From the NCBI GenBank assembly GCA_965644265.1, contig OZ286468.1, forward strand, positions 14,136,001 through 14,200,000: a stretch of DNA of 64,000 nucleotides, written 5' to 3'. The DNA is from Glycera tridactyla (Eukaryota). The translations under genes and the position numbers were made by a program. Below are positions 21,300-42,438 of this stretch, piece by piece. The notes below the pieces were generated by a model, which saw nothing but the letters and a program-made list of their open reading frames with translations, was not told where the DNA came from and did not search any database. Each line of letters begins with the position of its first letter. Position 1 is the first letter of the stretch.

Positions 21300-21544
21300 A
21301 GTAGTATTATATGGGTGCCTATGGCCGCCTCAAGTTCTGTGCAGATAAATAATAATAATGTGACAGCTGGATAATAAAAAATGATTAAAAACCCTATATT
21401 TGAACGGATCTGGGGCGGCCATAGGTCCCCATATCAATAACTTGTCATCATATTTCTCTTGGAATTGACATTTATCATCTATTAAATCAACTGAAGAAAC
21501 CATTTATTTCTATTTTCACTCCAAGTTCTGTGCAGATAAATCAT
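21300..21544 (+). repeat. Left terminal inverted repeat of the Maverick
   Basis: Reverse complement of 42194-42438 with roughly 8-9 differences; outer about 70 bp identical. Confidence 0.95.
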
Positions 21545-22017
21545 CATAATGTGACAGCGCTTGATGGAACTCAGCATTCACAGGTGAGCACACTCATATC
21601 AGCATCTTGTCATCATATATCTTCACTATCTCACCTACTAACTCAGCTATTACTCTCTGCAGATTTAGTATATGCAGATGTAGTATATATTTGACCATGA
21701 TTCTCCTGCTGCTAATCTTTCCTTCTCTTCTTCTGACCTATATCTCTGACCTATATCTCCTAGCATATGCCAGATAAATATGAGTATCATAGCTTGCTTC
21801 ACCTCAAACCAATACTGACATTTCTCATCATGAGACTGGTATCCACATGGGATTGACGTTAAATTCCGTTTGGTTGGATGGATAGAGATTTTTCTATTAT
21901 GGAGACGATTTACATCAGTGTGAGCTCGAGATATTGATATTGAAAAAAGTTGACTTTCTACTATCATTTTGTGGATGTACTATCATTCTAGGAACATTTT
22001 GTGGATGGAACTTTTTC

Positions 22018-22284
22018 ATGGATCGATTTCTCGCACCGCCTTTACCCTACTCTATTGCTGAACTTCGCCAACAGAAACAATTCTTCATTCGCATATCTGA
22101 CGATCTCTATCTGAAAGTGAGGAATAAAAAACAATCTTGCCTAATTCTGTTCTATTACCAGAACAAAAAATCTTTCTCAATACCCTATTCATTATTTCTG
22201 GAAGTTTTGAACTCATACGAAACAGTCAAACTAGCAGCTGATCTTATCCAAGGTACATTATTTACTGATCAAGATGGATCTTGA
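22018..22284 (+). CDS. Maverick small hypothetical protein (88 aa), possibly PC4-like beta-sheet/helix fold
   Basis: First ATG of ORF 21934-22284; overlaps the pPolB start by 11 nt. Fold guess from hydrophobic pattern only. Confidence 0.55.
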   Translation: MDRFLAPPLPYSIAELRQQKQFFIRISDDLYLKVRNKKQSCLILFYYQNKKSFSIPYSLFLEVLNSYETVKLAADLIQGTLFTDQDGS

Positions 22285-25200
22285 TTCTGTCTTCATTCAG
22301 CTTCTCAACAGTTTCCATTCAGCTACAGAGTTAGAGGAATGGGCTAGGACAAACAATCTACTGAATGATCCACAGGTTCAGGCAAGACTTAGACGATTTC
22401 GCCAAGCTGATGAAGATGATATTGACACTCTATATACTGCTATCAACTCTAATCACATGACCACTCAACCCATTCAGCAACAACCAAGGAGTACGAATTT
22501 GAATACCTATCCTTCTACCTCACATCAGAGTACTCAGTCCATATCTCATCCTGATTGGCACCAGCCAGGGAATACAAATCTGGATAACTATTGTTTTACC
22601 TCACATCACAGTAATCATCCAACTCGGTCAACTTCACATCAGGAATATACTTGCAAACAATGTAAAAAACATTTTGCCAGCAAATTCTCCTTGTGCAGAC
22701 ATGAAAAAAAATGTAAAGCAGAGAGTTTTGTCTGCCCCTTGTGCGGGAAGCAATACTCACAAGCGCCATCATTCAACAGACATAAACAGCTTTGTAAAGG
22801 ATACCCATGTTCTCTCTGCAATTCATCCTTCTCTTCATCTTCAGAACTAGACTCACACAGAAAACATTCACATCCGCATGTTTCGCAAAATTGTCCTTAT
22901 AGTTGTAGAGATTGTGGATCAGGACATAATAATCTCAGATCTTTATATCTACACAGATCAGTACAACATGGTGGTGCAGATAACCTTCAAGCTGAACCAT
23001 GGGATGAAGGTCCATGGATTGAAAATGGCCAGGTTATTGATCGAGATTTGAAGGAAGTGTACACTAGGAACCGCGAGCATATTTTGCGATCTCATAGAGA
23101 CACTGCTCACACTACTGTCTATAATTTTCCAACAAATAATTTGCAAGGAGGTATAGATTGGTTTATGGAACAACTTCAGTTCATTTTTCAGCAGCAACAT
23201 AATGCATTCAGAGTTAACATCTCTTTCGGAATGATATTGCGAAATTTAACTGCTGAAGACGGTCAGAATAGGTATAGATATTTCATACCATTCAAGAATA
23301 ATAACCTATTCACTCATCCAGTATACATTTCACGACGCAGAGATTTACGTAATATTCGTAACAGATTAGAAGCGTTGGATATAAATAACTATGTCAATGA
23401 AGAGAGACAAGACTCAAAATGGCGTCTATTCATGATTGTTAATGTGAATTTCGTCACTTATCGAACATACTACCCATTGGGTCAAGGTATCTTACCAAAT
23501 TTTATTCGAGAGCGAAAATGTATAGTGACTCTTGACAAGAGTCGGGCAGGAATTCCTTATAAAGATAATTTGTGCATCTTCCGTTGTCTCGCTACACATA
23601 AGAAAGCTAAAGCCATGTCTGCAACAGTGAATAACTATTATTCAAAGTGGAGAGCATACATTGCTTCTACCACTGGCAAAACTATTCCACTACATTCCAA
23701 GGATTATGAAGGTATCACATTCGACCTTTTGCCAGATTTTGAAAATTGTTTCAAAATCAATCTGCATGTGTATGAATTATTAGAAAATGGGTGCGTTGTC
23801 AATAGATTCCTTTCGTTGTCTGATTACCAAGATGAAATATATCTGAATTTCTATGATCATCATTTGTCATATATAAAGAATTTTGACACATATGCTCAAA
23901 AATTTCAATGTCCGATGTGCGAGAGACATTTTCTCAGAGCGTGGAATCTCAAACGACATTTGAGAGTCTGTTCCAATGTCACCAAACTTGTTTTTCCAGG
24001 AGGTTTGTATTCAAACTTCAAAACAATATTTGATGAATTGGAAGAGTATGATATCATTGTAGATTCCAGTAGAAGATTTTATGACTGGTTCATAGTGTAT
24101 GACTTGGAAGCCATTCTCATGAAGAGTGATGCAGTTGGAACAGAGAAATTGAAATGGAATAACGAACATAAACCGATTTCTATCAGCATAGCAGCAAACA
24201 CTGATGATCATAGAAAAGCGGTTTGCATTGTTGATCCTGACTTGGAATCACTGCTAGAAAAAGCAGTGGACTATTTCACTTCAGTTGCTGCACACATACA
24301 AGCACTAGCACACGAGAAATGGTCTGACATTTTTGAAATATTAGATGCTAATATTGATAAATGGAAATCTTCAAAAAAGACCAAAAAACACAAGCGTAAT
24401 CATTCAGGTTTTGTGCTTGAGTGTGCAGCTGTTGATGATGAATCTGATGATTATGATTCTGACATCTCAGACGACTTAGACGAAGACATTGACGATAATA
24501 ATGACCATAGTTGGAAAAACCAAAAGCGAGATGAAATCAGTAGCTCAAAGAAAATGTACAATAATTTGAGAAAACTCAGACAGAAATTTGAGTTATATTG
24601 CAACCAAGTTCCGGTGCTAGGGTTCAATTCTGCACGATATGACTTGAATTTGATCAAAGGTGCCTTTATTAGACATTTGAATTATTTACATTCGCAGAAC
24701 AAATTTGTAGTAAAAAAAAATGCGGCATATGCTTGCATTGCTACTGACAATTTTCGCTTTCTTGACATCTCCCACTACCTTGCACCATGTTGTAGTTATG
24801 CTCAATTTCTTAGAGCATTTGAGGTACAAGAGAACAAATCTTTCTTCCCATATGAATGGTTTGACCATCCAGACAAATTGAACTATAACTCTCTACCTCC
24901 ATATGACTCCTTTTTCTCATCATTGAAAGGTCTGAATGTTCTTGACTCTGATTTTTTTCACTGGGATGGGACAGGACAAAGACCTATGTCTGGTCAAGAA
25001 AATTATGAAGCCCTACTCCAAATATGGCAGGAAAAAAATATGCAGTCCATGCAAGATTTTCTCATATATTATAACAATTTGGATGTTGAACCCTTTGTTT
25101 CTGCTGTCGAAAACATGCAAGCTTTCTATCGAGAGAAATATATAGACCTATTCAAGACAGCAATCTCAGTGCCAGGAATTGCAAGACAATTACTATTCCA

Positions 25201-27607
25201 GACAGCCAAACAGTCCGGGGTCACTTTCTCAGTTTTTGGGAGAGAGGATGAAGATTTATATCGGACCGTGAAAGCAAATATTGTCGGTGGACCCTCTATT
25301 ATCTTCACAAGACACCATAAAACTGGTGAAACCAAGATACGAGGTGGCAAACTGTGTAAATCAATCCTCGGTTTTGATGCGAATGCTCTATATCTCTGGT
25401 CACTCGGTCAACCAATGCCCACAGGAAGTTATGTTCGTAGATCACGTGATGACAACTTCAAACCTATTTTTTCAATGAAGTATGTCGCCATGTTTCATTG
25501 GATGGACTACCTCAATATGACTAAGGTAGCTGACATTAAACATAAGATGAATAATGGAAGAGAGAAAAGGATAGGACCCTATTTTGTTGATGGATATGAT
25601 TCCAACACTAGCACCATTTATGAATACCATGGCTGCTATTTTCATGGACATGAATGCATGAAACATATGAAGGATGGTGAGAGAAAAGAACGTTATGACA
25701 GAACACAAAAGCGGAAACAATTTTTGATGGATCTTGGGTATAATGTTATTGAAAAATGGGAGTGCGAATTTCAAAATGAAGTCAAACGCAATCATCAATT
25801 AAAATCCCTAATTGATGAATCTCTCCCTCCTTTTGCCAGACAACATTGGTTTCCAGTTGCTGAAAGAGAAATTCTTGACGCAGTTGAACAAGGTCGTCTC
25901 TTTGGAATGGTGGAGGTTGATATCAGAGTCCCAGATAAATGGAATACCCACAGAAGATTCCATTTACCGCCACAGGATTATTTCAGTGAGATGTCACCCA
26001 TATTTTGTACGACAGACATTTCATTCGAGTCCATAGGAAGTCACATGCAAGAACACATCCAGGACCACAAGTTGAGTGATAAACCACGTCGTTTATTGGT
26101 AGGAGGAACAAAGGCCAAAAAAATTCTCCTTGCAACTCCTTTATTGAAATGGTATTTGAAACATGGAATGGAGGTGACATATATATATCAAGTCATTGAA
26201 TTCAGTCCTAATAACTGTTTCAAAGATTTTGAAAATAAAGTGAGTGATGCTCGCCGTCTTGGAGATGAAGATCCTAGGAAAGCAATAATTGCAGATTCCA
26301 TGAAGCTGATAGGGAATTCTGGTTATGGATCTCTGATTATGGATAAAGAGAAGCATCAAAATGTAGAATACGTTGAAGATGAATCAACTTTGATCCATAA
26401 AATCAATGATCCTCGCTTCAAAAAGATGACTGATCTCAGTGAAAATTTCTATGAGCTTGAGATGTCAAAAAAAAAATTGAAGCTTGACCTCCCTATCCAG
26501 CTCGGATATTTTGTACTGCAATATGCGAAACTCATGATGTTGTCTTTCTACTACGATTTTATGGATGTTTATGTCGACAGGAATGACTTTGAATACATAG
26601 AGATGGATACAGATTCTGCTTATATGGCAATATCTGCTGACAAATTTGAAGATGTCATCAAACCCTCTTACTGTGATCAGTATATGGACTCCATGAAAAA
26701 TCGATGTGATGACAACACCTTCCATCCAGATATGTATAAGAACTGGTTTCCTCGCACTTGTTGTGATAAACACAATAAATTTGATAAGAGAACACCGGGT
26801 TTATTCAAAGAAGAAGCCCGAGGTGATGAGATGATTGCACTGAGCTCCAAAACATACATCCTCAAGCAGGGATCCAATTGTAAGATGAGTTGCAAAGGGG
26901 TCAATAAATCTCAGGTCATTGATCCAATGAAAACATTTGAGCGTGTTCTTCGTGATCATAACCCTGTCACCACTGTTAACAGAGGATTCAGACCTAAAAA
27001 TAATACCATATTTACCTATGAACAGAAAAAAAATGGTTTCACATATCTCTACTGTAAGCGGATAGTGAGTGATGATGGAATACACACTACTCCACTTGAT
27101 ATCACTCTGTCCCCTTTCAAGGAGAGGAATATTCTACTGATTGATGAAAACCATCCATTATCACTCACATCAACTTGTGCTTTATCACATGATGGAGTGG
27201 TGTTCACAAGCATGCGTCATCTTTATGAATATTGTAAAGCGATTCATCATGATAATTTATTGGAAGGGCAAAGTATAATAGATAGAACAATCAATTCAAA
27301 ATCATTGCAAGATGTCACACCCTATGAATCAGATCGATGGATGTCGGAGAAAGAATCTATCATGTTCAATATTGCAAAAATGAGATGCAATCAGAGTTCG
27401 GAAATACAACAGATATTACAATCCAGTGGAGAAAAATCTTTTATTTATGCTATTTCCACAGATATGTATTGGGGATGCGGTTTTAATGAAAAAATTGCTC
27501 TGACCCGAGATCCGGATTCTCATCCCGGTGCAAACAGACTCTCATCAATCTGGATAAAAGTGAGACAAACTCTCAATCAATCCTCTATTTCTCACTGTCT
27601 AACATGA
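22274..27607 (+). CDS. pPolB: Protein-primed family B DNA polymerase (1777 aa) with N-terminal C2H2-type zinc fingers, a Vsr-like nuclease insert and a C-terminal NADAR-like domain
   Basis: Exo I YDLE, Exo II FNSARYD, Exo III YNNLD; polymerase motifs FDANALY, KLIGNSGYG, MDTDS. Four zinc fingers at about 22646-22970; insert VDGYD..YEYHGCYFHGH..KWECE at about 25568-25770. Confidence 0.95.
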   Translation: MDLDSVFIQLLNSFHSATELEEWARTNNLLNDPQVQARLRRFRQADEDDIDTLYTAINSNHMTTQPIQQQPRSTNLNTYPSTSHQSTQSISHPDWHQPGNTNLDNYCFTSHHSNHPTRSTSHQEYTCKQCKKHFASKFSLCRHEKKCKAESFVCPLCGKQYSQAPSFNRHKQLCKGYPCSLCNSSFSSSSELDSHRKHSHPHVSQNCPYSCRDCGSGHNNLRSLYLHRSVQHGGADNLQAEPWDEGPWIENGQVIDRDLKEVYTRNREHILRSHRDTAHTTVYNFPTNNLQGGIDWFMEQLQFIFQQQHNAFRVNISFGMILRNLTAEDGQNRYRYFIPFKNNNLFTHPVYISRRRDLRNIRNRLEALDINNYVNEERQDSKWRLFMIVNVNFVTYRTYYPLGQGILPNFIRERKCIVTLDKSRAGIPYKDNLCIFRCLATHKKAKAMSATVNNYYSKWRAYIASTTGKTIPLHSKDYEGITFDLLPDFENCFKINLHVYELLENGCVVNRFLSLSDYQDEIYLNFYDHHLSYIKNFDTYAQKFQCPMCERHFLRAWNLKRHLRVCSNVTKLVFPGGLYSNFKTIFDELEEYDIIVDSSRRFYDWFIVYDLEAILMKSDAVGTEKLKWNNEHKPISISIAANTDDHRKAVCIVDPDLESLLEKAVDYFTSVAAHIQALAHEKWSDIFEILDANIDKWKSSKKTKKHKRNHSGFVLECAAVDDESDDYDSDISDDLDEDIDDNNDHSWKNQKRDEISSSKKMYNNLRKLRQKFELYCNQVPVLGFNSARYDLNLIKGAFIRHLNYLHSQNKFVVKKNAAYACIATDNFRFLDISHYLAPCCSYAQFLRAFEVQENKSFFPYEWFDHPDKLNYNSLPPYDSFFSSLKGLNVLDSDFFHWDGTGQRPMSGQENYEALLQIWQEKNMQSMQDFLIYYNNLDVEPFVSAVENMQAFYREKYIDLFKTAISVPGIARQLLFQTAKQSGVTFSVFGREDEDLYRTVKANIVGGPSIIFTRHHKTGETKIRGGKLCKSILGFDANALYLWSLGQPMPTGSYVRRSRDDNFKPIFSMKYVAMFHWMDYLNMTKVADIKHKMNNGREKRIGPYFVDGYDSNTSTIYEYHGCYFHGHECMKHMKDGERKERYDRTQKRKQFLMDLGYNVIEKWECEFQNEVKRNHQLKSLIDESLPPFARQHWFPVAEREILDAVEQGRLFGMVEVDIRVPDKWNTHRRFHLPPQDYFSEMSPIFCTTDISFESIGSHMQEHIQDHKLSDKPRRLLVGGTKAKKILLATPLLKWYLKHGMEVTYIYQVIEFSPNNCFKDFENKVSDARRLGDEDPRKAIIADSMKLIGNSGYGSLIMDKEKHQNVEYVEDESTLIHKINDPRFKKMTDLSENFYELEMSKKKLKLDLPIQLGYFVLQYAKLMMLSFYYDFMDVYVDRNDFEYIEMDTDSAYMAISADKFEDVIKPSYCDQYMDSMKNRCDDNTFHPDMYKNWFPRTCCDKHNKFDKRTPGLFKEEARGDEMIALSSKTYILKQGSNCKMSCKGVNKSQVIDPMKTFERVLRDHNPVTTVNRGFRPKNNTIFTYEQKKNGFTYLYCKRIVSDDGIHTTPLDITLSPFKERNILLIDENHPLSLTSTCALSHDGVVFTSMRHLYEYCKAIHHDNLLEGQSIIDRTINSKSLQDVTPYESDRWMSEKESIMFNIAKMRCNQSSEIQQILQSSGEKSFIYAISTDMYWGCGFNEKIALTRDPDSHPGANRLSSIWIKVRQTLNQSSISHCLT

Positions 27608-27610
27608 AGG

Positions 27611-27814
27611 ATGGACATATCTCCATCCATGAAAAAACAAGTTTCATTTTCTATGAACGTGACACTATATTACATGCACACTTGGAAATTTGCATATAGA
27701 CAAGCAAGGATAAGTGATTGGCAGAAGACGTATCTTGATCGACTACGATTCGAAGATAGAATACGAAAGAGTGAATCTCTTCTATCTACAGTTCTGAGAG
27801 CTGGAATGAAATGA
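27611..27814 (+). CDS. GADD34/PPP1R15 C-terminal-like (ICP34.5/DP71L-type) PP1-eIF2alpha adaptor, 67 aa
   Basis: QVSFSMNVTLYYMHTWKFAYRQARISDWQKTYLDRLRFEDRI aligns without gaps to GADD34 [42 protein letters not shown]. Confidence 0.8.
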   Translation: MDISPSMKKQVSFSMNVTLYYMHTWKFAYRQARISDWQKTYLDRLRFEDRIRKSESLLSTVLRAGMK

Positions 27815-28443
27815 TGTATCCATTCAACCCCTGTACAACCATGGTTTTGAGTGGGACAACCGGTTCTGGAAAAACTAGTTGGATTCGTAATTTACTTCAA
27901 AATAGAGACTCCATGTTTCTCAATCTACCACCAGATGGAATACTTTACTGTTATTCAATATGGCAGCCAATATTCGATGACATGGAACAATTAGGAATTG
28001 AATTTCATTTAGGGATTCCAGGCGAGGACTATATTGACACATTCAGACAAAACCGCAAACATACAGTCATAGTGCTTGATGATTTGATGGATCAGATCAA
28101 ACAAAGTCCTGAGGTGGAAAGTTTATTCACACGTGGTTCACACCATAAACAATTAACCATTATATATTTGAATCAAAATTTGTTTTCTCAGGGAAAGTGT
28201 AGTCGGACCATAAATCTCAATGCGCATTATATAACTATTTTCAAGTCTTCTGATATCCATCAAATTCAGATACTAGGAAAACAGATGGGAATATGTAGAA
28301 CAATAGCAGAAGCATACAAAGATTGTATGCAAGATCAGTATGGTTATCTCATTATTGATCGATCACCGTCGGCTACACCATCACACATACTCAGAACGAA
28401 GATATTTCCCGGAGAAGATTGTATCATATATCAACCTATATAA
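27811..28443 (+). CDS. A32/FtsK-like DNA packaging ATPase
   Basis: Walker A SGTTGSGKT, Walker B VIVLDDLM, motif C TIIYLNQNLF. Confidence 0.92.
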   Translation: MMYPFNPCTTMVLSGTTGSGKTSWIRNLLQNRDSMFLNLPPDGILYCYSIWQPIFDDMEQLGIEFHLGIPGEDYIDTFRQNRKHTVIVLDDLMDQIKQSPEVESLFTRGSHHKQLTIIYLNQNLFSQGKCSRTINLNAHYITIFKSSDIHQIQILGKQMGICRTIAEAYKDCMQDQYGYLIIDRSPSATPSHILRTKIFPGEDCIIYQPI

Positions 28444-28478
28444 TTTGTTTGATCAGCTATCCATGGACAGTTCTCACC

Positions 28479-28787
28479 ATGAGTAAGGCGCTACAACAAG
28501 TAGAGGATTTTTTGGTGTTATTGCTGTCCACATCCAATTTTCAAGGAAGAGTACTATTGGAAACTGCAACACCGGACCAGGTACTTGCCATTCAGGAAAT
28601 AGTAGCAAATCTATTGGAGTCTAAGTCAAAACTATCACAAAATGTTAGAGTCTTATTGAATAAGAGAGACCGAGCTCTGAAAAAGATTGTGAACAAAGCT
28701 AACCCCGCTGTCACTATAGCTTCTCATTCTCGTCTTCTACTCGATACATTACTTGCAGTGAAAAGCTTGATTCTCTTTCAATTATGA
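28479..28787 (+). CDS. Maverick conserved hypothetical helical protein (102 aa)
   Basis: Open frame from ATG 28479 within the packed core block; LL..A...QV.AI.EI..NLL pattern resembles small Maverick core proteins. Confidence 0.7.
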   Translation: MSKALQQVEDFLVLLLSTSNFQGRVLLETATPDQVLAIQEIVANLLESKSKLSQNVRVLLNKRDRALKKIVNKANPAVTIASHSRLLLDTLLAVKSLILFQL

Positions 28788-29431
28788 AATTCACTCGTAA
28801 GATGGTGCTGATTCCTCATGAACGTTACAGGGCTCTCACAATGAATCGGCAGAATATAGAGAAAGATCCATCAATGGAAAAAGATTCAGTCGTTCCTTCA
28901 AGCCTTGACCATACATCATCTGAAAATATGGAAATTGAGGAACTAATAGACGTACCAGAAAACAGTATGAATGAGGAAACAATTCTGTCTTTACTTCCAA
29001 GAAAGTACAGAAGCAAAGGATCGATTCTACTCAATCAATTAAAAAAAGTCATGTCATGGAACAAAAATGGAGCAGTAACAATTAATGGGGAAGAGATTGC
29101 AGATTCACATATCACTGACCTGATAAAAGATGTTTTATCTCCATTCACTCTCAAGCATGCTTTGATTGGAATTGATAAATTCCGATCTTGTATGAAACTA
29201 TGTGGAATCCCGAAATCATTCTTATCTCATAAAATTCAGGATGGGAATGGAAATAAGAGGAAACCCCCTCCAGGTATACCACCTGAGCATAAGAAAGAAA
29301 GAAAACTTGAAGATGCAGACACAAATTTGCAAAAACCGCCCAAATATCAACTAGAAGATAAAAAAAAGAAGCGGGTATATAACAAGACTGCTAAAAAGTT
29401 TGCAAACATACAATGGCAGCAACTTATTTAG
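28784..29431 (+). CDS. Maverick conserved hypothetical protein (215 aa)
   Basis: KMVLIP N-terminus and WNKNGAVTINGEEIADSHITDLI motif typical of a Maverick core gene; basic C-terminus. Confidence 0.75.
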   Translation: MKFTRKMVLIPHERYRALTMNRQNIEKDPSMEKDSVVPSSLDHTSSENMEIEELIDVPENSMNEETILSLLPRKYRSKGSILLNQLKKVMSWNKNGAVTINGEEIADSHITDLIKDVLSPFTLKHALIGIDKFRSCMKLCGIPKSFLSHKIQDGNGNKRKPPPGIPPEHKKERKLEDADTNLQKPPKYQLEDKKKKRVYNKTAKKFANIQWQQLI

Positions 29432-30519
29432 AGAAGAACTACTTTGATCCCTCTGCTCCTGCAAGTTTTGCAGGACCGGAGAAGGTGCATAAGACTACCA
29501 AACTTCAAGGACATGACATAAGTAAGGCAGATATTGAGAAATGGATGCAAGCAGAGGATACATATACGTTGAATAAGAATGTGAGGAGAAACTTCCACAG
29601 ACCAAGAGTAGTTGTACCTGACAAAAACTATCAATGGGATGGAGATACTGCCTTCATGGTCAAGTATCACGAAGCAAATAAGGGATTTAAGTATTTTGTT
29701 CTCTTCATCGATATATTCTCAAGATATGTATATACAAGACCCACCAAAACAACAAAGGGAGAGGAAACGGTTTCTGTCCTGAAAGCCATATTTGATGAAG
29801 CAGGAACACACCCTCAGCATATCAGAACTGATAAAGGTGTTGAATTTGCAAATCGTAATGTCAAGAAACTTTGTCGCGATAAAGATATCAATTTCTTTGT
29901 CACTCAGAATGAGAAGAAGAGTAATTATGCTGAACGAGCAATAAAAACACTCAAAAACAAAATTATGAGATATATGAAAAGGAACAAAACGGAAAAATGG
30001 ATCGATATCCTTGCAGATATTACCTCAAGTTATAACCATTCATATCATCGCAGTATAAAGCGTGCACCTATATCAGTCACTTCAAATGATGTTGATCTAT
30101 GGCAACAACAGTATGATGAGAGAGAAAAAAAACCAATCATCAGGAAACCAAGATTACCCAAATTCAAATACAAGATAGGTGATATAGTCAGAATATCTAG
30201 ACTTCATGAACTTTTCGACAAAGAGTATGATGAGAATTGGACAAGAGAATTGTTCACAATCACAGAACGATGGTTTAATCAGGATATACCTTTGTATGCA
30301 CTAAAAGATTATGATAATGACCCTATCACTGGATCTTTCTATGAATATGAAATTCAGAAAGTTCAAGTCAAGGATGATGCTGTATATGACATTGAAAAAG
30401 TAATTCGTACTCGAATGAGAGATGGGGGAAAACAAGCACTTGTCCGCTGGCTTGGTTGGTCAAAAAAATTTGATTCATGGATCCCGTATGAAGATGTTAC
30501 AATTCACAAAAATGATTGA
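29413..30519 (+). CDS. Retroviral-like DDE integrase with C-terminal chromodomain
   Basis: WDGD...RTDKGVEF...SNYAERAIKTLK triad; chromodomain YDIEKVIRTR...ALVRWLGWSKKFDSWIP. Confidence 0.93.
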   Translation: MAATYLEKNYFDPSAPASFAGPEKVHKTTKLQGHDISKADIEKWMQAEDTYTLNKNVRRNFHRPRVVVPDKNYQWDGDTAFMVKYHEANKGFKYFVLFIDIFSRYVYTRPTKTTKGEETVSVLKAIFDEAGTHPQHIRTDKGVEFANRNVKKLCRDKDINFFVTQNEKKSNYAERAIKTLKNKIMRYMKRNKTEKWIDILADITSSYNHSYHRSIKRAPISVTSNDVDLWQQQYDEREKKPIIRKPRLPKFKYKIGDIVRISRLHELFDKEYDENWTRELFTITERWFNQDIPLYALKDYDNDPITGSFYEYEIQKVQVKDDAVYDIEKVIRTRMRDGGKQALVRWLGWSKKFDSWIPYEDVTIHKND

Positions 30520-30549
30520 TCTATACCAAGAAAGTCATTCCATGTCAGG

Positions 30550-30981
30550 ATGGGGCACAGACAACACTTCTTATTTGTTTCGTCCAAGGATTCCGCTTCA
30601 ATTTTTCCAGAAAATAAGAGTCATGAATTCAATGTACAACTCCCCCAAACACTTGAATTGCAAGGTGAATGGGAATGTGCATTGATTGATATGAATATAC
30701 GTCCTAAAGGAGTTGACATAAAGGACATATACATATTTACCGATTTCATACAGGATAGTTATGTTAGGGATAGTCAGCTTTCCCTGCTGGGAATTACCCA
30801 ATACATTTCAAAGAAGAAAACTGACACTGATTTGGCTCTAGATAAAAAACTGTATCACAAAGTTTCCCGAAATACTTTGGACACAATCAGGATATATATG
30901 ACAGATGAAAACTTGGAACCGTATACACACTTGGGAGAGAGTTCGAGGTGTACACTTCATCTACGAAAAGTCCGGAGATGA
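30550..30981 (+). CDS. Minor capsid (penton-like, PZ-type) protein, short form (143 aa)
   Basis: FVSSKDSASIFPENKSHEFNVQLPQTLELQGEWECAL matches the S..S...FP.N....F.V.LP..L.L.G.W motif of Polinton minor capsid proteins. Confidence 0.72.
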   Translation: MGHRQHFLFVSSKDSASIFPENKSHEFNVQLPQTLELQGEWECALIDMNIRPKGVDIKDIYIFTDFIQDSYVRDSQLSLLGITQYISKKKTDTDLALDKKLYHKVSRNTLDTIRIYMTDENLEPYTHLGESSRCTLHLRKVRR

Positions 30982-31322
30982 ATTTTCTTAGTCCAGATCT
31001 AGCTTTTCTCACCCCTGATCTGAATAAGTGGAAGACTCATTTTCTTAACATGGCAAGAAATAAAATCTGTGGAAAAGACAAGAGAGTACTGGTGCAACGA
31101 GAACCATCTGAAAAGCCGCTGATAAAGATGGTTACCCCGGCTCAGCAAGCAGTTGAAGTAGCAGAATCAGCATTGGAACAAGTCATAAAACCATCCAGAA
31201 AGCGAAAATCGTCTCAGTTTGCAAAATCATCTCGTACTAAGAAGGTCAAACAGACTCAAAGCGGACAGGGTAAAAAACATAAATCTACTAAACGGATATC
31301 ACATACAAGGAAAAAACGATGA
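30978..31322 (+). CDS. Small basic protein (114 aa), candidate virion core protein
   Basis: K/R-rich C-terminal half containing QSGQG; lies immediately upstream of the major capsid gene. Confidence 0.65.
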   Translation: MNFLSPDLAFLTPDLNKWKTHFLNMARNKICGKDKRVLVQREPSEKPLIKMVTPAQQAVEVAESALEQVIKPSRKRKSSQFAKSSRTKKVKQTQSGQGKKHKSTKRISHTRKKR

Positions 31323-32584
31323 AGATTGACGGAGATGAATGCCACAAAAACACACTATCTCTTTTCCAAACACCACCCTACGATGTCGGGATCATATCCG
31401 AGGAGTATATAGATTTCAGACCAATTGCTCAAGTGACTGGTGATGCACCAATTGAATTCATATATTCTGGTAATAGTTCATCATATATTGACCTGAGAAA
31501 GTCAAGATTGAAAGTGAAAGCAAAGGTGGTGAAGACAGGAGGAGGAGACATTGACTCCACTGATAATGTAGGAGTGTGCAACCTAACACTTCAATCATTA
31601 TTTCGCCAGGTAGACCTCTCCCTTCAAGGACTTGTCGTATCTACATCAGCATGTTACTACAATTATAAAGCTTATATTGACACTTTGGAACATCTAGCAG
31701 AGGGAGAAGAGAAGTATAGTAGTCAAATCTTCTCCCTTGATACTCCTGGAGGGTTCGATACTGTGGCAGATCCTTCAGAAGGATCAACCATACCTTCAAA
31801 TATTGGTCTGAATGATAGGAAAGTTCTGCTGAACAAAGCCGGATTTGAGATGGTTGGCCCAATTATGTCTGACCTTGCACAGCAAGATAGACTGATACTG
31901 AATGGTTTACCACTGCATTTGAAACTTTGGCCTGCCAAAGATTCATTCATTTTACTTTCAGACTCAACCAATTATAGAATACATATTACAGAGGCTGTAT
32001 TACAATTAGCGATGATTAAAGTTTCACCAGGAATTCTGATTGGACATGCAGAAGCATTGAAAGAAAAACCTGCCCAATATCCATTGACAAGATCAGTATT
32101 AAAATCGTATAATATTCCCAAAGGTCAATTTGATACTGTACTTTACCCTATATTTACTAATGAGGTTCCTAGTGAAGTCATCATTGCTATGGTTGATTCT
32201 AGAGCATACAATGGTGATTTTAGTATGAATCCGTATAATTTCCAAAACTTTGATTTAAATTATATTGCTCTGACAGTTGATGGTCAGTCAGTGCCACACG
32301 CCCCCTTACAACCGAACTATAGGAAAGATTTGTTCACTGAATGCTACCTCAGTTTTTTTGGTGACGGACAGATTGATAGAACAAGTTACAAAGACGGATA
32401 CTGTATTTATAAATTCGCATTATCATCACTGCACAAAGAAGATTGTCTTGCTGTTTCTAAAACTGGCGAGGTTCGAATTCACTTGAGATTTAACACATCT
32501 ATAAATAAGGGGGTTACTGTGTTAGTGTATGGGAAATTTCCTGACCTATTACAGATTGATGAGGCACGTAATATTTTGAAATGA
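31319..32584 (+). CDS. Major capsid protein (double jelly-roll, PY-type), 421 aa
   Basis: LSLF..PP..V.I....Y..FRP, YIDL..S.L.VK, LFRQVDL, NPYNFQNF and EVRIHLRF motifs and length typical of Polinton MCP. Confidence 0.88.
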   Translation: MKIDGDECHKNTLSLFQTPPYDVGIISEEYIDFRPIAQVTGDAPIEFIYSGNSSSYIDLRKSRLKVKAKVVKTGGGDIDSTDNVGVCNLTLQSLFRQVDLSLQGLVVSTSACYYNYKAYIDTLEHLAEGEEKYSSQIFSLDTPGGFDTVADPSEGSTIPSNIGLNDRKVLLNKAGFEMVGPIMSDLAQQDRLILNGLPLHLKLWPAKDSFILLSDSTNYRIHITEAVLQLAMIKVSPGILIGHAEALKEKPAQYPLTRSVLKSYNIPKGQFDTVLYPIFTNEVPSEVIIAMVDSRAYNGDFSMNPYNFQNFDLNYIALTVDGQSVPHAPLQPNYRKDLFTECYLSFFGDGQIDRTSYKDGYCIYKFALSSLHKEDCLAVSKTGEVRIHLRFNTSINKGVTVLVYGKFPDLLQIDEARNILK

Positions 32585-33051
32585 ATAACGTTCAGTTGAC
32601 TCATTTTTTAATGAAAAATCAATATACTCATAAATATTTCATGGGAGTGTTTTCTGCTGATACTTTGCCGGGTTCCATCCCAAGAAAACCCGCTTTTCTG
32701 ATTGTGAATACAGCGAAACAAAAAGAGGAGGGTCGACACTGGATCTGTCTTTTCTTTCCTAGACAAGGTCCAAGTGAATGCTTTGACTCTCTCGCTAGGA
32801 ATTCCACTCAATTCGAACGATTTCTATTGAAACAATCATCTACCTGTCTTCACAATCTACTCAGGTTACAACAATCGGGAACTAATACATGTGGACTATT
32901 TTGTATCCAATTTGCTGTAAATAGATGCAAAGGTGTTACTTTCTCTGATTTTTTATCTTTTTTTCGAGGAAGAAGTCTGACTGAAAACGAGAAAATAATC
33001 AAACATTTGACATGGCCAATCTTGCTAATTTCAGATTCCTGCTCGGTATGA
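32581..33051 (+). CDS. Adenain-like cysteine protease
   Basis: GRHW (His), CFDS (Asp), LQQ...TCGLFC (Gln/Cys) catalytic motifs. Confidence 0.9.
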   Translation: MNNVQLTHFLMKNQYTHKYFMGVFSADTLPGSIPRKPAFLIVNTAKQKEEGRHWICLFFPRQGPSECFDSLARNSTQFERFLLKQSSTCLHNLLRLQQSGTNTCGLFCIQFAVNRCKGVTFSDFLSFFRGRSLTENEKIIKHLTWPILLISDSCSV

Positions 33052-33353
33052 AATTACGTCGAGTCTATGATTTCTTGGTGAAATGTGTTTGTTCTGTGAA
33101 AACACAGCCAGGAGAAATGACAGGAATGGAACTGGAACTTCATATAGTCAAGAGCCAGCTTGCAAGTTATCAAAGGAGAGAAATGGAGTATTATAATTTC
33201 CGTAAAAAGCTTACAATGCAGAATCGTCAAAAAGAATGGCTTCAAAAGCAGGATGAAGATAACTATTATGAATGTGTAGAATGTGGAACTTTAATCCCCA
33301 AATTCGAAATGAGCAGTGATGAAGGGGAGGACTATGATACAATTGATGGATAA
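33048..33353 (+). CDS. Small hypothetical protein (101 aa) with coiled-coil and CxxC motif
   Basis: ATG overlaps the protease stop (ATGA); YECVECG; AATAAA follows at 33451. Confidence 0.6.
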   Translation: MKLRRVYDFLVKCVCSVKTQPGEMTGMELELHIVKSQLASYQRREMEYYNFRKKLTMQNRQKEWLQKQDEDNYYECVECGTLIPKFEMSSDEGEDYDTIDG

Positions 33354-33450
33354 AGTTTGCATTGATGGCGTATTGTTGTACTGATGTATTGATGACATAT
33401 TGCTGTACTGATGTAGTGTTGTATTACTGTATTGGTGAGATGGATCATGT

Positions 33451-33456
33451 AATAAA
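33451..33456 (+). terminator. Candidate polyadenylation signal closing the core gene block
   Basis: AATAAA about 100 nt after the last core ORF, followed by T-rich sequence. Confidence 0.5.
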
Positions 33457-34284
33457 AAAAAAAGTATTGAAGTGAAAAAAAAAGTTTGTCTTTTGTTTCT
33501 ATCTATTCAATGGCATAATAAGTAAGATGATAGCATCAAATGAGTCGGTTTCCATAACTAGGGCGAATCTTGCCAAATATTGTCTTCAAGGGAGCTGGAA
33601 TGGGAATTCACCAAGGCGAGTTCATTTATAGCTAGGTGGGATTATTTATAGACAGGCGGAGTTATTTATAGACAGGCGGGTTTATTTATAGCTACCGCGT
33701 CAAAATCAACGCTATTTATAACTCGCTGTCAGTAGTGCGCACGATAGCATCCGCATGGATGCCGCGGTAAGAGGACGTGGATTTCTTGTCACGAGCATGA
33801 AACCAGATTCATTCTATGAGAGATATATTCCGTATGCATGTGAAAGAACCATCACTATCTTTCACAAAAGAAGGGATTGATCAAGAAAGCGTGTGTATGG
33901 GGATATAAGCCATATCCATTTGAAAGAATCATCACCACTCTGTAAAGAGAAGTGATTGATCCCGGGAACACTGCATCTTCCTCAGTCTTTTCAAGAATGA
34001 TGAGCTGAAAAGAGAAGGGATTGACCCCAGCAGTGCTGGTTCTTCCTCATTCTTTTCAAGAACGATAAACTGAAACATACAAATTGAGAGATATATGCGG
34101 GAGAAAATGTCAGTCTTATAATGTTAATCTAGAATAAATATCCTCAGAATAATAAGAAAGACGGAACCACTTGATAAAACTAATGAAATATAGGCAATAA
34201 AAGAATACCATGAAGATATGAGCGGTGAAATATCTCGCTATTTTTTTTTCCCACGGATCAAGACTGTGGACCTCCAGCATTGTT

Positions 34285-34425
34285 CGAAAGCGCGAAACTA
34301 TAGGCGCGCCACAAGAAGAGCACTAAAAAAGGCGCTAAAAAAAGGCGCTAAAAGAAGGCGCTGAAAGAAGGCGCCAACTTTAGGTTATATAAGGAAGAAA
34401 TCTTAATTTGACCGCTGTCATTTGT
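34285..34425 (+). promoter_or_regulatory. Candidate Pol II promoter inside the Maverick
   Basis: GCGCGAAA (E2F-type, about 34290), four AAGGCGC repeats (34325-34375), TATATAAG at 34386-34393 and TCATTT initiator-like site about 30 nt downstream. Confidence 0.5.
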
Positions 34426-34449
34426 GATCGAATCACTGAAACGGTCGAG

Positions 34450-34597
34450 ATGAAGCGATGTCAGCGGAATAGGCACTGTTTGTGCCACGAGTGTATGGAT
34501 GGATTACACATGTATTGCCCTAATCGTGGTCCGAAACCTGGATCAGAACTCAGTTTGGTCGTGGGATTGAAAATTGGAACCATCTATGCAAATACAG
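34450..34597 (+). CDS. Predicted exon 1 of Maverick spliced membrane protein (Cys/His-rich)
   Basis: ATG 34450 just after TATA/Inr; MKRCQRNRHCLCHECMDGLHMYCP...; phase-1 donor ACAG|GTTAGT. Confidence 0.4.
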
Positions 34598-35342
34598 GTT
34601 AGTTGATTGTTCTTTCATTATGATTAATTGATAGAAAGATAGGAAGGCAGACAGACGCACACACAGGCATTGAAAATTGGAACCAAGTATGTGAATACCG
34701 GTTAGATGATTGTTCTTTGATCATGATTAATTTATAAACAGATAGGTAGGCAGACAGACACACAGACGCATTCAGACAGATGGATAGACATGCACACGGA
34801 TGCACATGGACGCGCACATACAGACAGATATGTAGAATAATGCTTACTCAGTTTTGATAGATGCACATACAGACAGACACACGGACACATTCAGACAGAT
34901 GGATAAACATGCACCCGGATGCACACGGACGTACACACAGACAGATACGTAGAGTAATGCTTATTCAGTTTTGTCTGTTACCAAGATCATGAATCCAAAA
35001 TACATTTCAAGTGAAAAACATGTCTATTTTTGAATATATTCTGTGTGATTCTGTAAGAACCATCGCTTTCCTTCGCAAGAAGAATGGATTGATCCATTTT
35101 TGTCACCTCCGCTATCAGATTAAGGAGTAGTCATATATCCAGACATGAAGTCATTAGATTCAATTTGTTCGTGTCAAGGAGGTATAGACATGTCTGAACT
35201 GACAAATACATCGACTCAACTTTCTTTCTGGTTCCTATCATATTATATTCAGAGTTTGAGTGAGTGACATATATACGATCAGAACATTTAGTTGATCAAA
35301 TTCAACTGCAATCAGTAATGAATTCTTTTGTTTTCAATATAG

Positions 35343-35561
35343 ATATATGTGAGAGAGAGGATGTCACTACAACACAAAGATTGAACAGAGGTGGAAGACT
35401 ACTTGATGGGCCTGACGGTTTGCTTGCCACCTCATCTGATGGACTTCCGATTGATTCGGTGACTGGAATTTCAGCCGGAACCATAACAGCTGCATCAACT
35501 ATCCCAATGATCATAATCATTCTGATGATTATCAGCGCCTTCTTTCTGATCAAACATCATG
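35343..35561 (+). CDS. Predicted exon 2 (transmembrane segment)
   Basis: Acceptor TTCTTTTGTTTTCAATATAG|, phase 1; encodes IPMIIIILMIISAFFLI; strong donor CATG|GTGAGT, phase 1. Confidence 0.6.
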
Positions 35562-35998
35562 GTGAGTTCCATTTATTTGAATCACATTTTGGTGAATAAT
35601 ATTCAAAGGATGAAATTCATGTAGAATATTCAATTCTTCTTCATTATCACATACAAATTTTTCATTATCACACTTAGTGAATGTGAAAAAGTATATTTGG
35701 TGAAGGGAAAAAGCATACCTGGTGAACGGAAAAGTATACTTGATGATTGGAAAAAAACACATGAGGAAGAATCCAATGTATTTTGAATGTAAATTTTTCA
35801 TCAACATATTTTGAAAAATGACAACAATTGTTTTCATTTATGCATACATCTCGAATGAAAAAAACACCTTGGTTCATCATTCCATCAAACATCAATTTGA
35901 TTAATACATAAGATTTAGTGGAAACAACCCAGCGCTGATATCTAATTGGAATTTGGAATTTACAGAATTTTTGATGAAGTGTATGTTCGCTGTTTCAG

Positions 35999-37512
35999 TT
36001 CATGTGAATTTCGGGAGAATGGGGAATATCGTGTCCTCGCATCTACCACGAATTCCGAGACGGTCGATTCATCCAGCCCCGCCAGGAGGGATAAGACGCC
36101 CGCTTCCACGTCTGCCGCCACCGACTCGCCCCCCTCCCCCACGTGTCGATGGTCTACCACCACTCCCGCCACCAACACGTGTAGACGGTCTACCGCCACT
36201 CCCGCCGCCAAGAAAGAAACCAAGACCCCCACCAGTTCGCGCCCTACCTCCACAGAAACACGGACTACCCCTACTCCCACCGTTAATGCCAAAACCGCTT
36301 GATCATCCAGGTCAAATAGCTGCATCGCTAGCTGAACTAGGTGACGTTGTTGGAGCTACCAAAATAATACACCCACATGTTCCGTCCATTCCCCGACTCC
36401 CCAGGCAGTATGAGCCTGGACCTGCGCGTGGTCTAGCAATTGCTCTAGGCGAATTGGGTCGATATCATACACCGTCCTTGGTATCCCATGGAGATAGCGG
36501 AATGAGCCCAATATCAGATTCCGATCATGTAGTGCATTCAGTACCCTCGCCTAGTTTGCTGACAGAAAATTCCTCGGACTACTATCCTGATCGTTCCTCG
36601 GACTACTATTATGATCGTTCCTCAACCCAGTATCATGATCTACCGGTTCCATCTCCACGTACAGTTTTACCATCACCTGAAGAGAGTTTTGAAGAGAGAG
36701 TGGCTAGGTGGCGCTTCGATCCACCTTCAAATGCTACTTCTGATCATGATCATGATCATGATCATGATCATGATCATGATCATGACTATGAGCAGGTGGA
36801 TAGTGTAACTGAATCAGTCCAAGATACGGTAGATGAGGTCTACAAAATGTATGAAGATTCTGACTCAGATTGGGATTATGAGATTGATAGTATTTATGAA
36901 GAACTGAATATGTTGGATAATGACTTACATGGTGTGAACTATAATGACTCTGATGATGATGATTGGATTACTCCTTCAGAAGATGACAATGTGAGTTGTA
37001 GCTATCCAGATGAGGAAGGTTTGGAGAGAACTGGTCAGTTTGATGAGGGAGAGGGTGCGGAGGTGGTGAGTGGACAGATCGATGAGGGAGAGGGTGCGGA
37101 GGTTGAGAGTGGTCAGTTTGGTGAGGGAAAGGGTGCGGAGGTGATGAGTGGTCGGTTTGATGAGGTAGGTGGGGGAGAGGATTCGGTGCAGGAAGTGAGT
37201 GGTCAAGATGAGAATGTAGAGGAGGCGAGTGGTCAGATCAGAGAGGGAGGTAGCGAAAATCATCAGGATGGTGGGGAAGAGGATCCGGAGGCGAGTGGTC
37301 ATATTGGTGGGGAAGAGGATCCGGAGGCGAGTGGTCATATTGGTGGGGAAGAGGATCCGGAGGCGAGTGGTCATATTGGTGGGGAAGAGGATCCGGAGGC
37401 GAGTGGTCATATTAGTGAGGGAGGTAGCAGTGCTCATCATCCACCAGCTTCCTTCATTTCACTCAGACGTCGTGAAGTTGAAAGAGTGGTCAAATTGAAA
37501 AAGAAGAAGTGA
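35999..37512 (+). CDS. Predicted exon 3: Pro-rich, (DH)n and acidic repeat tail (most of ORF 35953-37512)
   Basis: Acceptor GTTTCAG| in the phase matching exon 2; about 504 open codons; four perfect 36-bp repeats at 37270-37413; basic end KLKKKK. Confidence 0.65.
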
Positions 37513-38528
37513 AGGAAGCTGGTGAACATCCAAATCAATACTTTTTGATATTTAGTCTCAGTATTTTCTCAGTCAGTCTCACTTATTTTAGTTTCAATCT
37601 GAATTGAAATAGTTTACTGTGGTTGTATTAGGGAAGAGTCAGTTTTTAAATTTTCCATTGCATGGTCAGTTTCTGAACTGTGGTCGCTTTATAGAGGAGT
37701 CTGTCCATAGCCGGTAGTGAGTAATAAAATCTCTCATATTCCTCACAACTCCAATGCAGTAGTAGAGACTGTGAAAACTTTCACATCTCATAGATTCCAA
37801 AATGATGGTAGTCATTTTATGGATCTACTGAACTCTAGCATATGGTTACTGTCATCTTTCGGTTGTATTAGGGAGGTGTCCACTTTAAAATTTTCCATCC
37901 ACCACTCACTCTATCTCATTTTTTAAAGTTGGAACGTAAATCTAACTACACATAATTTTGCGCGGTATATGAGACTGAGAAAACCGCTAACTGGCACAAC
38001 TCATAGAGTTCAATTTATGAAGGTGGTCATTTTATGAAGGTGATCATTTTATGCATGTCTACTCCACCACACATTCATGGGAGATACATAAGATCCATTC
38101 AGATCAAGATGTTGATATCATATAGTTTGATAGATGGATGTTCTGAAGGTGGTCGTATCATGAAGGTGGTCGTATCATGAAGGCGTTCACATATATTTTG
38201 ACGGAAATGTTCTTGCCCTAATATTCTATATTGTTGGATGTGCTTGTATCATGGATGGATTTCAAAATAAAAACCCATTACTTGACAATACAGTATTTGT
38301 ATCGAATCCTGTTTCAACTGAAAATGTGATTTTGACCTCATTCTCTGTGACTAGTTCTGACACACTCGCGCATCGAATTTTTATTGTTCATCAAGACAAG
38401 GGGGAGGGTCATCAATTAAGGACTGCAGGTCAGGGAGGATCATCATTTATGACCTGCAGGATGGGAGGGACATCAATTATGGACTGTGAAACAGCTAGTA
38501 GACTGTTTCTATACTTAAATATTTCTGG

Positions 38529-38903
38529 ACATCTTCTGCATAAGCCTGGATCTGATATCGCCCTTTTTCTGGTGGAAAAAAGGGATCTACCGATTCCAAC
38601 CTTACCCCGGTCACACCACGAGGAGGTAGATGTCATATGACCATCTAACCTTTTGAATAGTCGTAAATTGACTATGATTGGTCAAATAAAACTAAGAATA
38701 ATGTAGTTTTATGAAGAGTATTATAATTTGAACATCTTCTGCATAAGCTTGGATTTGACAGTTTCCCTTTGTAGTGGTAATAAGGGATTCTATCGGTTCC
38801 AACCTTACCCCGGTCACACCGCGAGGAGGTAGATGTCATATGACCGTCTAACCTTTTTGAATAGTCACAAAAATGACTAAAATTGTCCGAATGAAGCTAA
38901 GAA
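38529..38903. repeat. Diverged tandem duplication (about 203-bp period) within the Maverick
   Basis: ACATCTTCTGCATAAGC...CCAACCTTACCCCGGTCACACC.CGAGGAGGTAGATGTCATATGACC present from 38529 and 38732. Confidence 0.85.
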
Positions 38904-39503
38904 AGTGTGTTTTGGATTTTATTTTTTTATAATTTTTTTTTTCTTATTTTATAGGAACACTTCAATTCTGAATAGATATTCATTGTCAATGATAAAAGAT
39001 CGCTCACTCGATCAAACTAAGATTGGTGCTTTTCGGATTGGTATTCAACCAATGAACAAGATCAAACTCGATATTTCTGTTCGGATACCCGTCCGGGTTC
39101 AATCCTTTTCCTGTGACGTTGATACATACTCATATCGAGTTGAATTGTCTGCTTGGACTCTCATCAAGTAAAGATCATGCACGACTGTGCAGAGCAAGGT
39201 TCAAAGCACTGCAAATATATCATCACCACATGTCATTGAAAACGTCTGCTTGAACTCCTGTCCAGGAAAGTTCCTCTTACGTTGATGCAGACAGAGTGAA
39301 AATGACTTGTGAACCAAATATATTGTAAGTGATCAGTCTAATTTCATTGCGATGGATGAACATTAAGAAATAAAGTGTTCCATTTTATAATTTTTTTCGT
39401 GGGTAATGTATCCTCTCGATACTTAAATGATTCAAACTGAGTATTGAGAGAATGCAGAACCAAATTAATGAAATAACGATAATTTCGACACTGCATTGCA
39501 CTG

Positions 39504-39914
39504 TTATATGAAATGGAAAATGAAATGTTCCATACAAATTGCACCAAGACGAATTCTACCGACACTATCCCACCAATGAAATGAGATTTTTGGAATGAGT
39601 CCGGTATCGGGGCTGGCTATAGCGTCCAGATAGGTATCCTGAGCGTTAGACGTGTCCATCCCATCTGCGAAGGTCGAGCGATACTCTAAGACTTTGATTA
39701 ATATTCTCAGACCGCGAATATAGGCCGTGAATGTAAAGTCAAAGTCTGAGGTAAACAAACCACGTCTGCAGATAGGGCAAGAATTGTGTCCTTCATTAAC
39801 CATCTGGATTAGGCATGTGATACAAGAAAAGTGGTTGCATGATGGTAAACGAGGAAATAAGTCGTTATTCCGAAATTCGTAGCAAATGATACACTCCGAA
39901 TAAATTTCCGACAT
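39504..39914 (-). CDS. C3HC4 RING-finger protein (putative E3 ubiquitin ligase), 136 aa
   Basis: CIIC-x14-CNH-x2-CITC-x11-CPIC has canonical RING spacing. Confidence 0.8.
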   Translation of the reverse strand: MSEIYSECIICYEFRNNDLFPRLPSCNHFSCITCLIQMVNEGHNSCPICRRGLFTSDFDFTFTAYIRGLRILIKVLEYRSTFADGMDTSNAQDTYLDAIASPDTGLIPKISFHWWDSVGRIRLGAICMEHFIFHFI

Positions 39915-40177
39915 TTTAGATCTGGTGTGTATGGTGTGAAATATAACAGTGCAATGTAGCCTACAGATAGAATACCATCACCATCACCATCAAAGGGGGG
40001 TGGTGTGGAGGAGGGTTGTAGTGACCACCCTCAGATTCATCCAATCATAGGTTCCATAGGGAACAACCATAGCGTCCACCCACGATATGGAATATGGAAC
40101 TTGATTTATAGTCCACCATTTCCTCACGATATATATTATTCAGAATGGTGTCTGACCAGAAATTCAAGATGAAATGG

Positions 40178-42193: not shown

Positions 42194-42438
42194 ATGATTT
42201 ATCTGCACAGAACTTGGTGTGAAAATAGAAATAAATGGATTTCTAGGTTGATTTAATAGATGATAAATGTCAATTCCAAGAGAAATATGATGACAAGTTA
42301 TTGATATGGGGGCCTATGGCCGCCCCAGATCCGTTCAAATATAGAGGTTTTAATTATTTTTTATTATCCAGCTGTCACATTATTATTATTTATCTGCACA
42401 GAACTTGAGGCGGCCATAGGCACCCATATAATACTACT
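42194..42438 (-). repeat. Right terminal inverted repeat of the Maverick
   Basis: Ends ...ATAATACTACT followed by TTATTA. Confidence 0.95.

Follow-up and report, generated by a model that had tools for sequence, protein, structure and literature searches.

A minimal PPP1R15/DP71L-like gene in a Maverick/Polinton of Glycera tridactyla and in many related element families

Stand-alone viral versions of the PPP1R15 core have been described from herpes-, asfar-, pox- and baculoviruses (PMC5346070 among the sources, in the portions consulted). HSV ICP34.5, canarypox CNPV231 and the PPP1R15A-like genes of baculoviruses are captures of this core that undo eIF2alpha phosphorylation; unlike the gene described here, all are found in large DNA viruses, and we liken them to it by description, not by sequence. 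For ASFV DP71L, the sections consulted state that about 70 aa suffice for activity (PMC5346070; 10.1101/2025.02.28.640897) and that the LSAVL motif is needed for function (PMC5346070). Vertebrate-type Mavericks (PMC8097293) and adintoviruses (PMC8502044) share with the element described here the ppolb-atp-pm-pz and int-mcp-pw-Mcp-pro gene orders, AGTAGT termini and size range, but no gene is mentioned between ppolb and atp in the text searched. Among the best-ranked matches in the full-text literature searched, there is no report of a PPP1R15 core in Polintons (Repbase or GenBank annotations might list it). No phosphatase or eIF2 term occurs in the searched sections of PMC8502044, PMC11296320, 10.1101/2023.08.22.554363, PMC11161782, PMC8097293, 10.64898/2026.10.13.758929 and PMC11131425. 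Whether animal Mavericks are viruses or transposons has so far been argued mostly from the conservation of capsid genes; a conserved gene directed at the host's control of translation offers evidence of another kind.

We analysed a window of 64,000 nucleotides of the Glycera tridactyla genome, which holds an element of this type (Table 1). The 67-aa ORF that the earlier note had placed between pPolB and the ATPase is borne out by the gene map and by its translation, which was reproduced exactly. It starts 3 nt past the pPolB stop, and its stop shares 4 nt (ATGA) with the ATPase start; four core-gene junctions of the element are packed in the same way. The ATG is in good context, and no promoter of its own is evident upstream of this copy. 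Every motif named in that note was found (K9-Q-V11-S-F13, V17-T18, W25, A32-R33 and W37-x5-D43-R44-x-R46-F47-x2-R50-I51), and the gap-free register that it had claimed with the C-terminus of GADD34/PPP1R15A extends over 54 columns of the alignment to chain 7nzm_C. In several families (L016-L030, L041, L044) the ORF continues for about 20 codons inside the ATPase gene, read in a different frame; that of the window family ends at the ATGA overlap.

Table 1. Features of the Maverick/Polinton element and of the 67-aa ORF (positions in the window)
Feature	Position	Strand	Evidence
Complete Maverick/Polinton, 21,139 bp (21.1 kb)	21300..42438	+	Termini AGTAGT...ACTACT, 6-bp TSD TTATTA
Left TIR	21300..21544	+	Arms 96% complementary
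88-aa ORF (accessory arm), overlaps pPolB start	22018-22284	+	Sequence
pPolB-type polymerase, 1777 aa, C2H2 fingers and C-terminal NADAR	22274..27607	+	PolB motifs, gene order; NADAR E=2e-16
Minimal PPP1R15/DP71L-like ORF, 67 aa	27611..27814	+	Sequence, Pfam, PDB and profile searches, Atlas, selection tests, PP1 model
RVxF-type PP1-docking motif KQVSF (residues 9-13)	27635..27649	+	Sequence; register with KVRF 555-558; lowest-error contacts in PP1 model
R33 to I51: PP1 Arg-pocket residue, invariant Trp, DRxRFxxRI helix (in PPP1R15A: actin-/eIF2alpha-facing)	27707..27763	+	Alignment, published residue maps
A32-like packaging ATPase	27811..28443	+	PF04665 E=4.8e-6, above cut-off
102-aa conserved ORF at PM position	28479..28787	+	ppolb-atp-pm-pz order; kept in sister families; label by position only
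215-aa ORF at PZ position	28784..29431	+	Label by position only
Retroviral-like integrase with chromodomain	29413..30519	+	rve E=3e-12, Chromo E=1e-7, above cut-off
143-aa ORF at minor capsid position	30550..30981	+	Label by position only
114-aa ORF at PW position	30978..31322	+	Label by position only
Double jelly-roll major capsid protein, 421 aa	31319..32584	+	Model pLDDT 75; Foldseek
Adenain-like maturation protease	32581..33051	+	PF00770 E=3e-6, above cut-off
512-aa Pro/acidic repeat ORF (accessory arm)	35974-37512	+	Sequence
RING finger ORF (accessory arm)	39504-39914	-	Pfam E=2e-6
360-aa ORF (accessory arm)	40178-41260	-	Relatives in other families
Right TIR	42194..42438	-	Arms 96% complementary

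The short form of DP71L (70-72 aa; PDB 9NB9) resembles the Maverick protein in length and in being a stand-alone core with an RVxF motif, a linker, R-x3-W, DRxRFxxRI and an LSAVL-like tail (LLSTVL in the 67-aa ORF). However, the linker of the Maverick ORF is 6 residues longer and GADD34-like, there is a D at the R594 position, and the ORF is carried by an integrating 21-kb element in many germ-line copies. The human core (PPP1R15A/GADD34 residues 555-621; PDB 7NZM, 4XPN and 7NXV) and PPP1R15B/CReP are comparable over the 54 gap-free residues, in which V556, F558, R578, W582, D588, R591, F592, R595 and I596 of PPP1R15A have kept counterparts. In contrast to PPP1R15A/B, the ORF lacks the N-terminal ER anchor, PEST and substrate-recruiting regions; it ends at the equivalent of R612, and R587 and R594 are not kept.

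Taken singly, the ORF provides modest evidence for likeness to PPP1R15. Its sole Pfam match at E<=1 is PF10488 (E=0.14; 12.2 bits, under the cut-off of 26.1). All 5 matches at E<=10 among 177,635 PDB sequences are PPP1R15A, PPP1R15B or DP71L chains (E=0.0027 for PPP1R15A, E=0.014 for DP71L). The best Atlas match (0.96, with a low recognition score) is a cluster in which 37% of members have PF10488, and the score against the host PPP1R15 exon (84) was equalled in 0 of 10,000 shuffles (maximum 52). Searching by word index gave no homologues for the ORF as a single query and 21 relatives for an alignment.

At the level of the family the evidence is strong. A profile of 15 element-borne copies, from which cellular sequences were left out, matches PPP1R15A at E=1.3e-16, DP71L at E=1.5e-12 and PPP1R15B at E=3.1e-10; 7 of its 8 PDB matches belong to the PPP1R15/DP71L family and the eighth has E=0.71. 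PF10488 is matched at E<=1 by 10 of the 15 aligned copies, and element-borne relatives of another family score 29-33 bits, above the cut-off. Invariant or near-invariant in the 15 copies are V11, F13, R33, W37, D43, R46, F47, R50 and L62, and the near-invariant columns coincide with residues mapped as functional in PPP1R15A. The RVxF motif (KQVSF), the PhiPhi pair (L19/Y20 at V564/H565) and the Arg (R33 at R578) are correctly spaced, without gaps, and the LLSTVL of the ORF corresponds to the LSAVL motif of DP71L. Also present are the invariant Trp (W37) and counterparts of the actin-facing F592, R595 and I596 (F47, R50 and I51). Judged from these alignments, the 67-aa ORF is almost certainly a homologue of the PPP1R15/DP71L core.

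The gap-free register and the published numbering (PMC10743859, PMC8500838, in the parts consulted) equate V11/F13 with V556/F558 of PPP1R15A, R33 with R578, W37 with W582, D43 with D588, R46 with R591, F47 with F592, R50 with R595, I51 with I596, and L19/Y20 with the PhiPhi pair. Of 17 anchored families, 15-17 retain the counterparts of R591, D588, F592, R595, W582 and R578. At the eIF2alpha-facing sites, D43 and R46 are kept; R587 is replaced by L42 and R594 by D49, a charge reversal. These two sites vary both in the family and among cellular members, with T and N in the host gene. D at the R594 position occurs in 2/17 element families and in 1/41 long external relatives, and is absent from the states listed for 90 short ones. 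In several families the basic residue before V-x-F has been lost. In many element copies, S or T occurs inside the V-x-F motif (S12 in the window, positions 27644-27646). Phosphorylation inside V-x-F switches off PP1 binding in other regulators.

A structure prediction with PP1, which the earlier note had suggested, docked KQVSF and scored 0.80, whereas none of 3 controls exceeded 0.00; the partner pLDDT is 59-64, and at least 63% of contacts recur between runs. Among solved eukaryotic pairs for which there is no like complex, 39/65 reach that mark, against 2/126 of unrelated pairs. The PP1 used is a mosquito stand-in, with 100% identity to the 79-aa PP1 exon of the host. In the model, residues 8-28 touch PP1, including Y104, D97 and L315-C317 of the stand-in, and R33 is not confidently placed. 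By numbering offset, we take these PP1 residues to be Y78, D71 and a strand of the RVxF groove. Because like complexes have already been solved, the model may draw on memory, and it indicates likeness rather than binding; KQVSF and residues 16-25 are predicted to bind PP1.

By analogy with known members of the family, the 67-aa protein is probably a PP1/actin adaptor that dephosphorylates eIF2alpha. It would dock host PP1 via KQVSF. As in PPP1R15A and DP71L, R33 would enter the PP1 Arg pocket, W37 would position the helix, F47, R50 and I51 would bind actin, and D43 and R46 would contact eIF2alpha. PP1 with G-actin would then be directed to eIF2alpha dephosphorylation, allowing element mRNAs to be translated during stress shut-off. 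The least secure step is the benefit, which may come when polymerase and capsid are made in a burst during a virus-like phase. The ORF is the cheapest Maverick gene to test, as PP1 pull-down and phospho-eIF2alpha assays are established.

Among 114 candidates scored in the genome, 91 match the ORF, and 84 of these have no internal stop. Fourteen copies are 97-100% identical, with frames intact in all 14, and over the surrounding 3.2 kb they match the window at 98-100% identity; the other matches fall in many families, at 36-70% identity. At least 65 of the 91 are within 1 kb of an ATPase match on the same strand (68 of 150 listed ATPase matches were used), and two more were placed near an ATPase gene by locus inspection. 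A further 21, assigned by score class (5 inspected), belong to a distant Maverick family with the gene after the protease, and 3 are isolated or degraded. Twenty more ATPase-centred stretches were compared. The gene occupies the pPolB-ATPase slot in 12 of the 14 from the window's clade, some with stops or a frameshift, and is missing from the other two, both of one family (L064/L065). The 6 stretches from a distant clade, elements perhaps not fully covered, gave no match in 5/6 and a weak match elsewhere in 1/6.

In a tree of the ATPase, the gene is present in 16 of 17 rows (sampled families) of the window's clade, and the family without it is nested inside. In that family the gene is detectable neither at the slot nor, for one copy, in the surrounding 30 kb. 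This absence is likely a loss and, because the family lies inside the clade, the gene is dispensable. The survey of other Mavericks proposed earlier thus recovers the gene at the same slot in sister copies and sister families. The reading in the earlier note is partly supported, and it under-called the scope, since the gene is lineage-wide in many families and in two slots. We conclude that the gene is real, conserved and spread across this Maverick lineage, and that it belongs to a known viral kind. We found no report of it in such a carrier; the mechanism is not new.

Compared with a sister family by simple Nei-Gojobori counts, the core of the ORF (58 codons) has a dN/dS of 0.20, the ATPase 0.08, the end of pPolB 0.13, and the genes at the PM and PZ positions 0.49 and 0.25. 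For the ORF, dN/dS between families is 0.20-0.33. In 14/16 family pairs, which share sequences and so are non-independent and of which several have saturated dS, pN<pS at P<0.01; two low-divergence pairs gave dN/dS of 0.78 and 0.58, not significant. Distances for ORF and ATPase are correlated over 15 families (Mantel rho 0.63, p=1e-4). The ORF is under purifying selection and is inherited vertically with the element.

The host PPP1R15 gene was identified at about 73.892-73.896 Mb of G000:C31, minus strand (L056; PF10488 36.2 bits). It has the same W-x-[FY]-A-Y-x-x-A-R linker type as the ORF but differs in its long N-terminal exon and in an intron between K and V of its K-V-Y-F motif, and it is not the closest kin of the ORF (15/51 residues identical). 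Recent capture from this gene was considered and rejected, as a clade of the window family with the host exon is excluded by an AU test (p=0.009). We conclude from these comparisons that, within the element lineage, the gene is old. All 18 element rows may share a single origin, which the AU test does not reject (p=0.46, about 60 columns). In a 102-row tree, which includes a random draw of 40 from 92 short external proteins, element rows are split among anonymous short proteins. The window family falls there in a starred group with 6 such proteins from other data, themselves selected by the 15-copy profile.

These results bear on whether the frame could be a small ORF that arose by chance, or a passenger in decay that was taken recently from host PPP1R15. 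It is short, its single-sequence scores are weak, and 5/6 distinct substitutions among the 14 near-identical copies are nonsynonymous, as in neutral decay after insertion. Set against this are the low dN/dS between families, the 84 matches free of internal stops, co-divergence with the ATPase, and the distance from the host exon with the rejected clade. Such an origin is largely refuted, and we regard it as extremely improbable. Also improbable, though less so, is that the protein binds PP1 (perhaps actin) and has lost or changed its substrate targeting, acting as a decoy against host PPP1R15 or on another substrate. The replacements of R587 by L and R594 by D would fit, as would the PP1 model, in which only residues 8-28, and not R33, are confidently placed. 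However, the six counterparts kept in nearly all anchored families argue for an intact adaptor, DP71L is likewise without R587 yet active (10.1101/2025.02.28.640897, in the part consulted), and prolonged shut-off is of no obvious use to the element.

A different question is the purpose of the proposed eIF2alpha dephosphorylation. The earlier note held that it counters an antiviral response, as expected of an infectious virus. The antiviral reading is the weakest step: a non-exhaustive reading of 140 kb turned up neither a kinase motif nor a PKR-like kinase near 9 dsRBD matches. Family searches for HRI and GCN2 were silent, as were their controls, and are therefore uninformative; one exon of host eIF2alpha was found. 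The step to independent infectivity is unproven, and it is not forced because an element in a stressed germ-line or helper-infected cell would gain equally. With the same biochemistry, the gene might instead serve copying in germ-line or stressed cells or in co-infection with a helper. We consider this quite possible, if short of likely, and it contests only the infectious-virus step. Many Polinton-like viruses have been hypothesised to be parasites of large DNA viruses (PMC11296320, in the section consulted), PPP1R15 of Drosophila has roles in development and in ER stress (PMC10743859, likewise), and since the limited search found no PKR, shut-off may come from other kinases. On the other side, the stand-alone versions in the literature examined are all viral, and the capsid, protease and ATPase frames of the element are intact, with the ATPase under strong purifying selection.

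Outside this genome, the 15-copy profile retrieved 1,874 protein clusters at E<=0.001. Of the best 150 external proteins 147 were new, including 71 of at most 100 aa and 41 of more than 200 aa. We examined 14 metagenome loci: 8 are long frames or resemble cellular exons, 5 are short stand-alone ORFs in two groups, and one is a 120-residue frame without context. In one contig, a stand-alone homologue (L112:429-617, plus strand) is about 1.9 kb from a PF21738 DJR capsid gene (380 bits). After the capsid gene come ORFs that by eye are penton-like and protease-like; the 5' end of this contig is perhaps chimeric. Another contig (L111) has the same neighbours. The capsid of the window has no PF21738 match and, because the capsid types differ, we infer that a second Polinton-type lineage carries the gene. 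A pPolB link for the L113 group was considered and dropped, as the N-terminal likeness is by eye only (BLASTP to the window pPolB E=0.06 and 0.47; Pfam silent), and no neighbours were identified for L106 and L108.

Two contigs of large viruses encode homologues with a shared W-x-FAYR-x-AR linker: one of 90 aa in a 243-kb contig with topoisomerase II and dNK (L061:9986-10258), and one of 124 aa in a 190-kb contig (L062:9794-10168). Scans of IMG/VR with single proteins gave 0 relatives among 20 and 17 pattern matches. Exact cluster look-up for 9 short external relatives gave no informative names, and so most short external homologues are without context. A cluster of 71-aa proteins in the Atlas is labelled Preplasmiviricota (a single record); thus, such a protein may already have an entry in a database. 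Tentatively, and with more doubt than confidence, we suggest that suppression of the ISR is an overlooked ancient part of the life cycle of animal Polintons. A minimal PPP1R15 gene would then be near-core across both capsid types and account for many anonymous homologues of 60-100 aa, and Polintons would have been a reservoir or shuttle of the mimic among animal DNA viruses. Three external proteins (P0025, P0026, P0033) have 2-4 repeated PPP1R15 cores.

The 1777-aa ORF has no Pfam polymerase match; we take it to be probably the polymerase, from PolB motifs and from its place in the gene order. It is at the expected place and is conserved across Maverick families. Its NADAR domain (positions 27185-27575, pPolB residues 1638-1767) is alignable in sister families. 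NADARs strip ADP-ribose from guanine in DNA. This domain, which lies immediately upstream of the 67-aa ORF, may serve as a second module against host defence; the term is absent from a paper on Polinton pPolB (10.1101/2023.08.22.554363). The capsid fold was modelled from an 11-sequence alignment (pLDDT 31 from the single sequence), and its best Foldseek matches are the iridovirus, PBCV-1, mavirus and Sputnik capsids (E down to 4e-13). Contigs from 4 sequencing runs span the element, including its non-coding ends, with no splice joint, and are uninformative on transcription. A 15.3-kb contig at flat depth 16 in one run was considered as a free element genome and rejected, as a shallow skim of about 14 near-identical copies gives the same.

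In the family with the gene after the protease (L046, L047, L052, L054), the capsid is 34% identical. Unlike the window copy, this ORF has its own CCAAT, TGAC[CG]TCA, TATAAAA and ACCATG upstream. The CRE/ATF-type site is perfect in 1/4 copies, and stress-inducible expression of this gene is a guess. A weak diverged match in a distant family (L079:1428-1583, minus strand; E=0.0018) lies between the integrase and minor capsid genes and is possibly a third slot. In a starred clade of 8 sampled families (L031-L040, L066-L075, L082), the first Trp is missing and the linker is 3-5 residues shorter, nearer in length to that of CReP and DP71L; these families form one clade in both the ORF tree and the ATPase tree.
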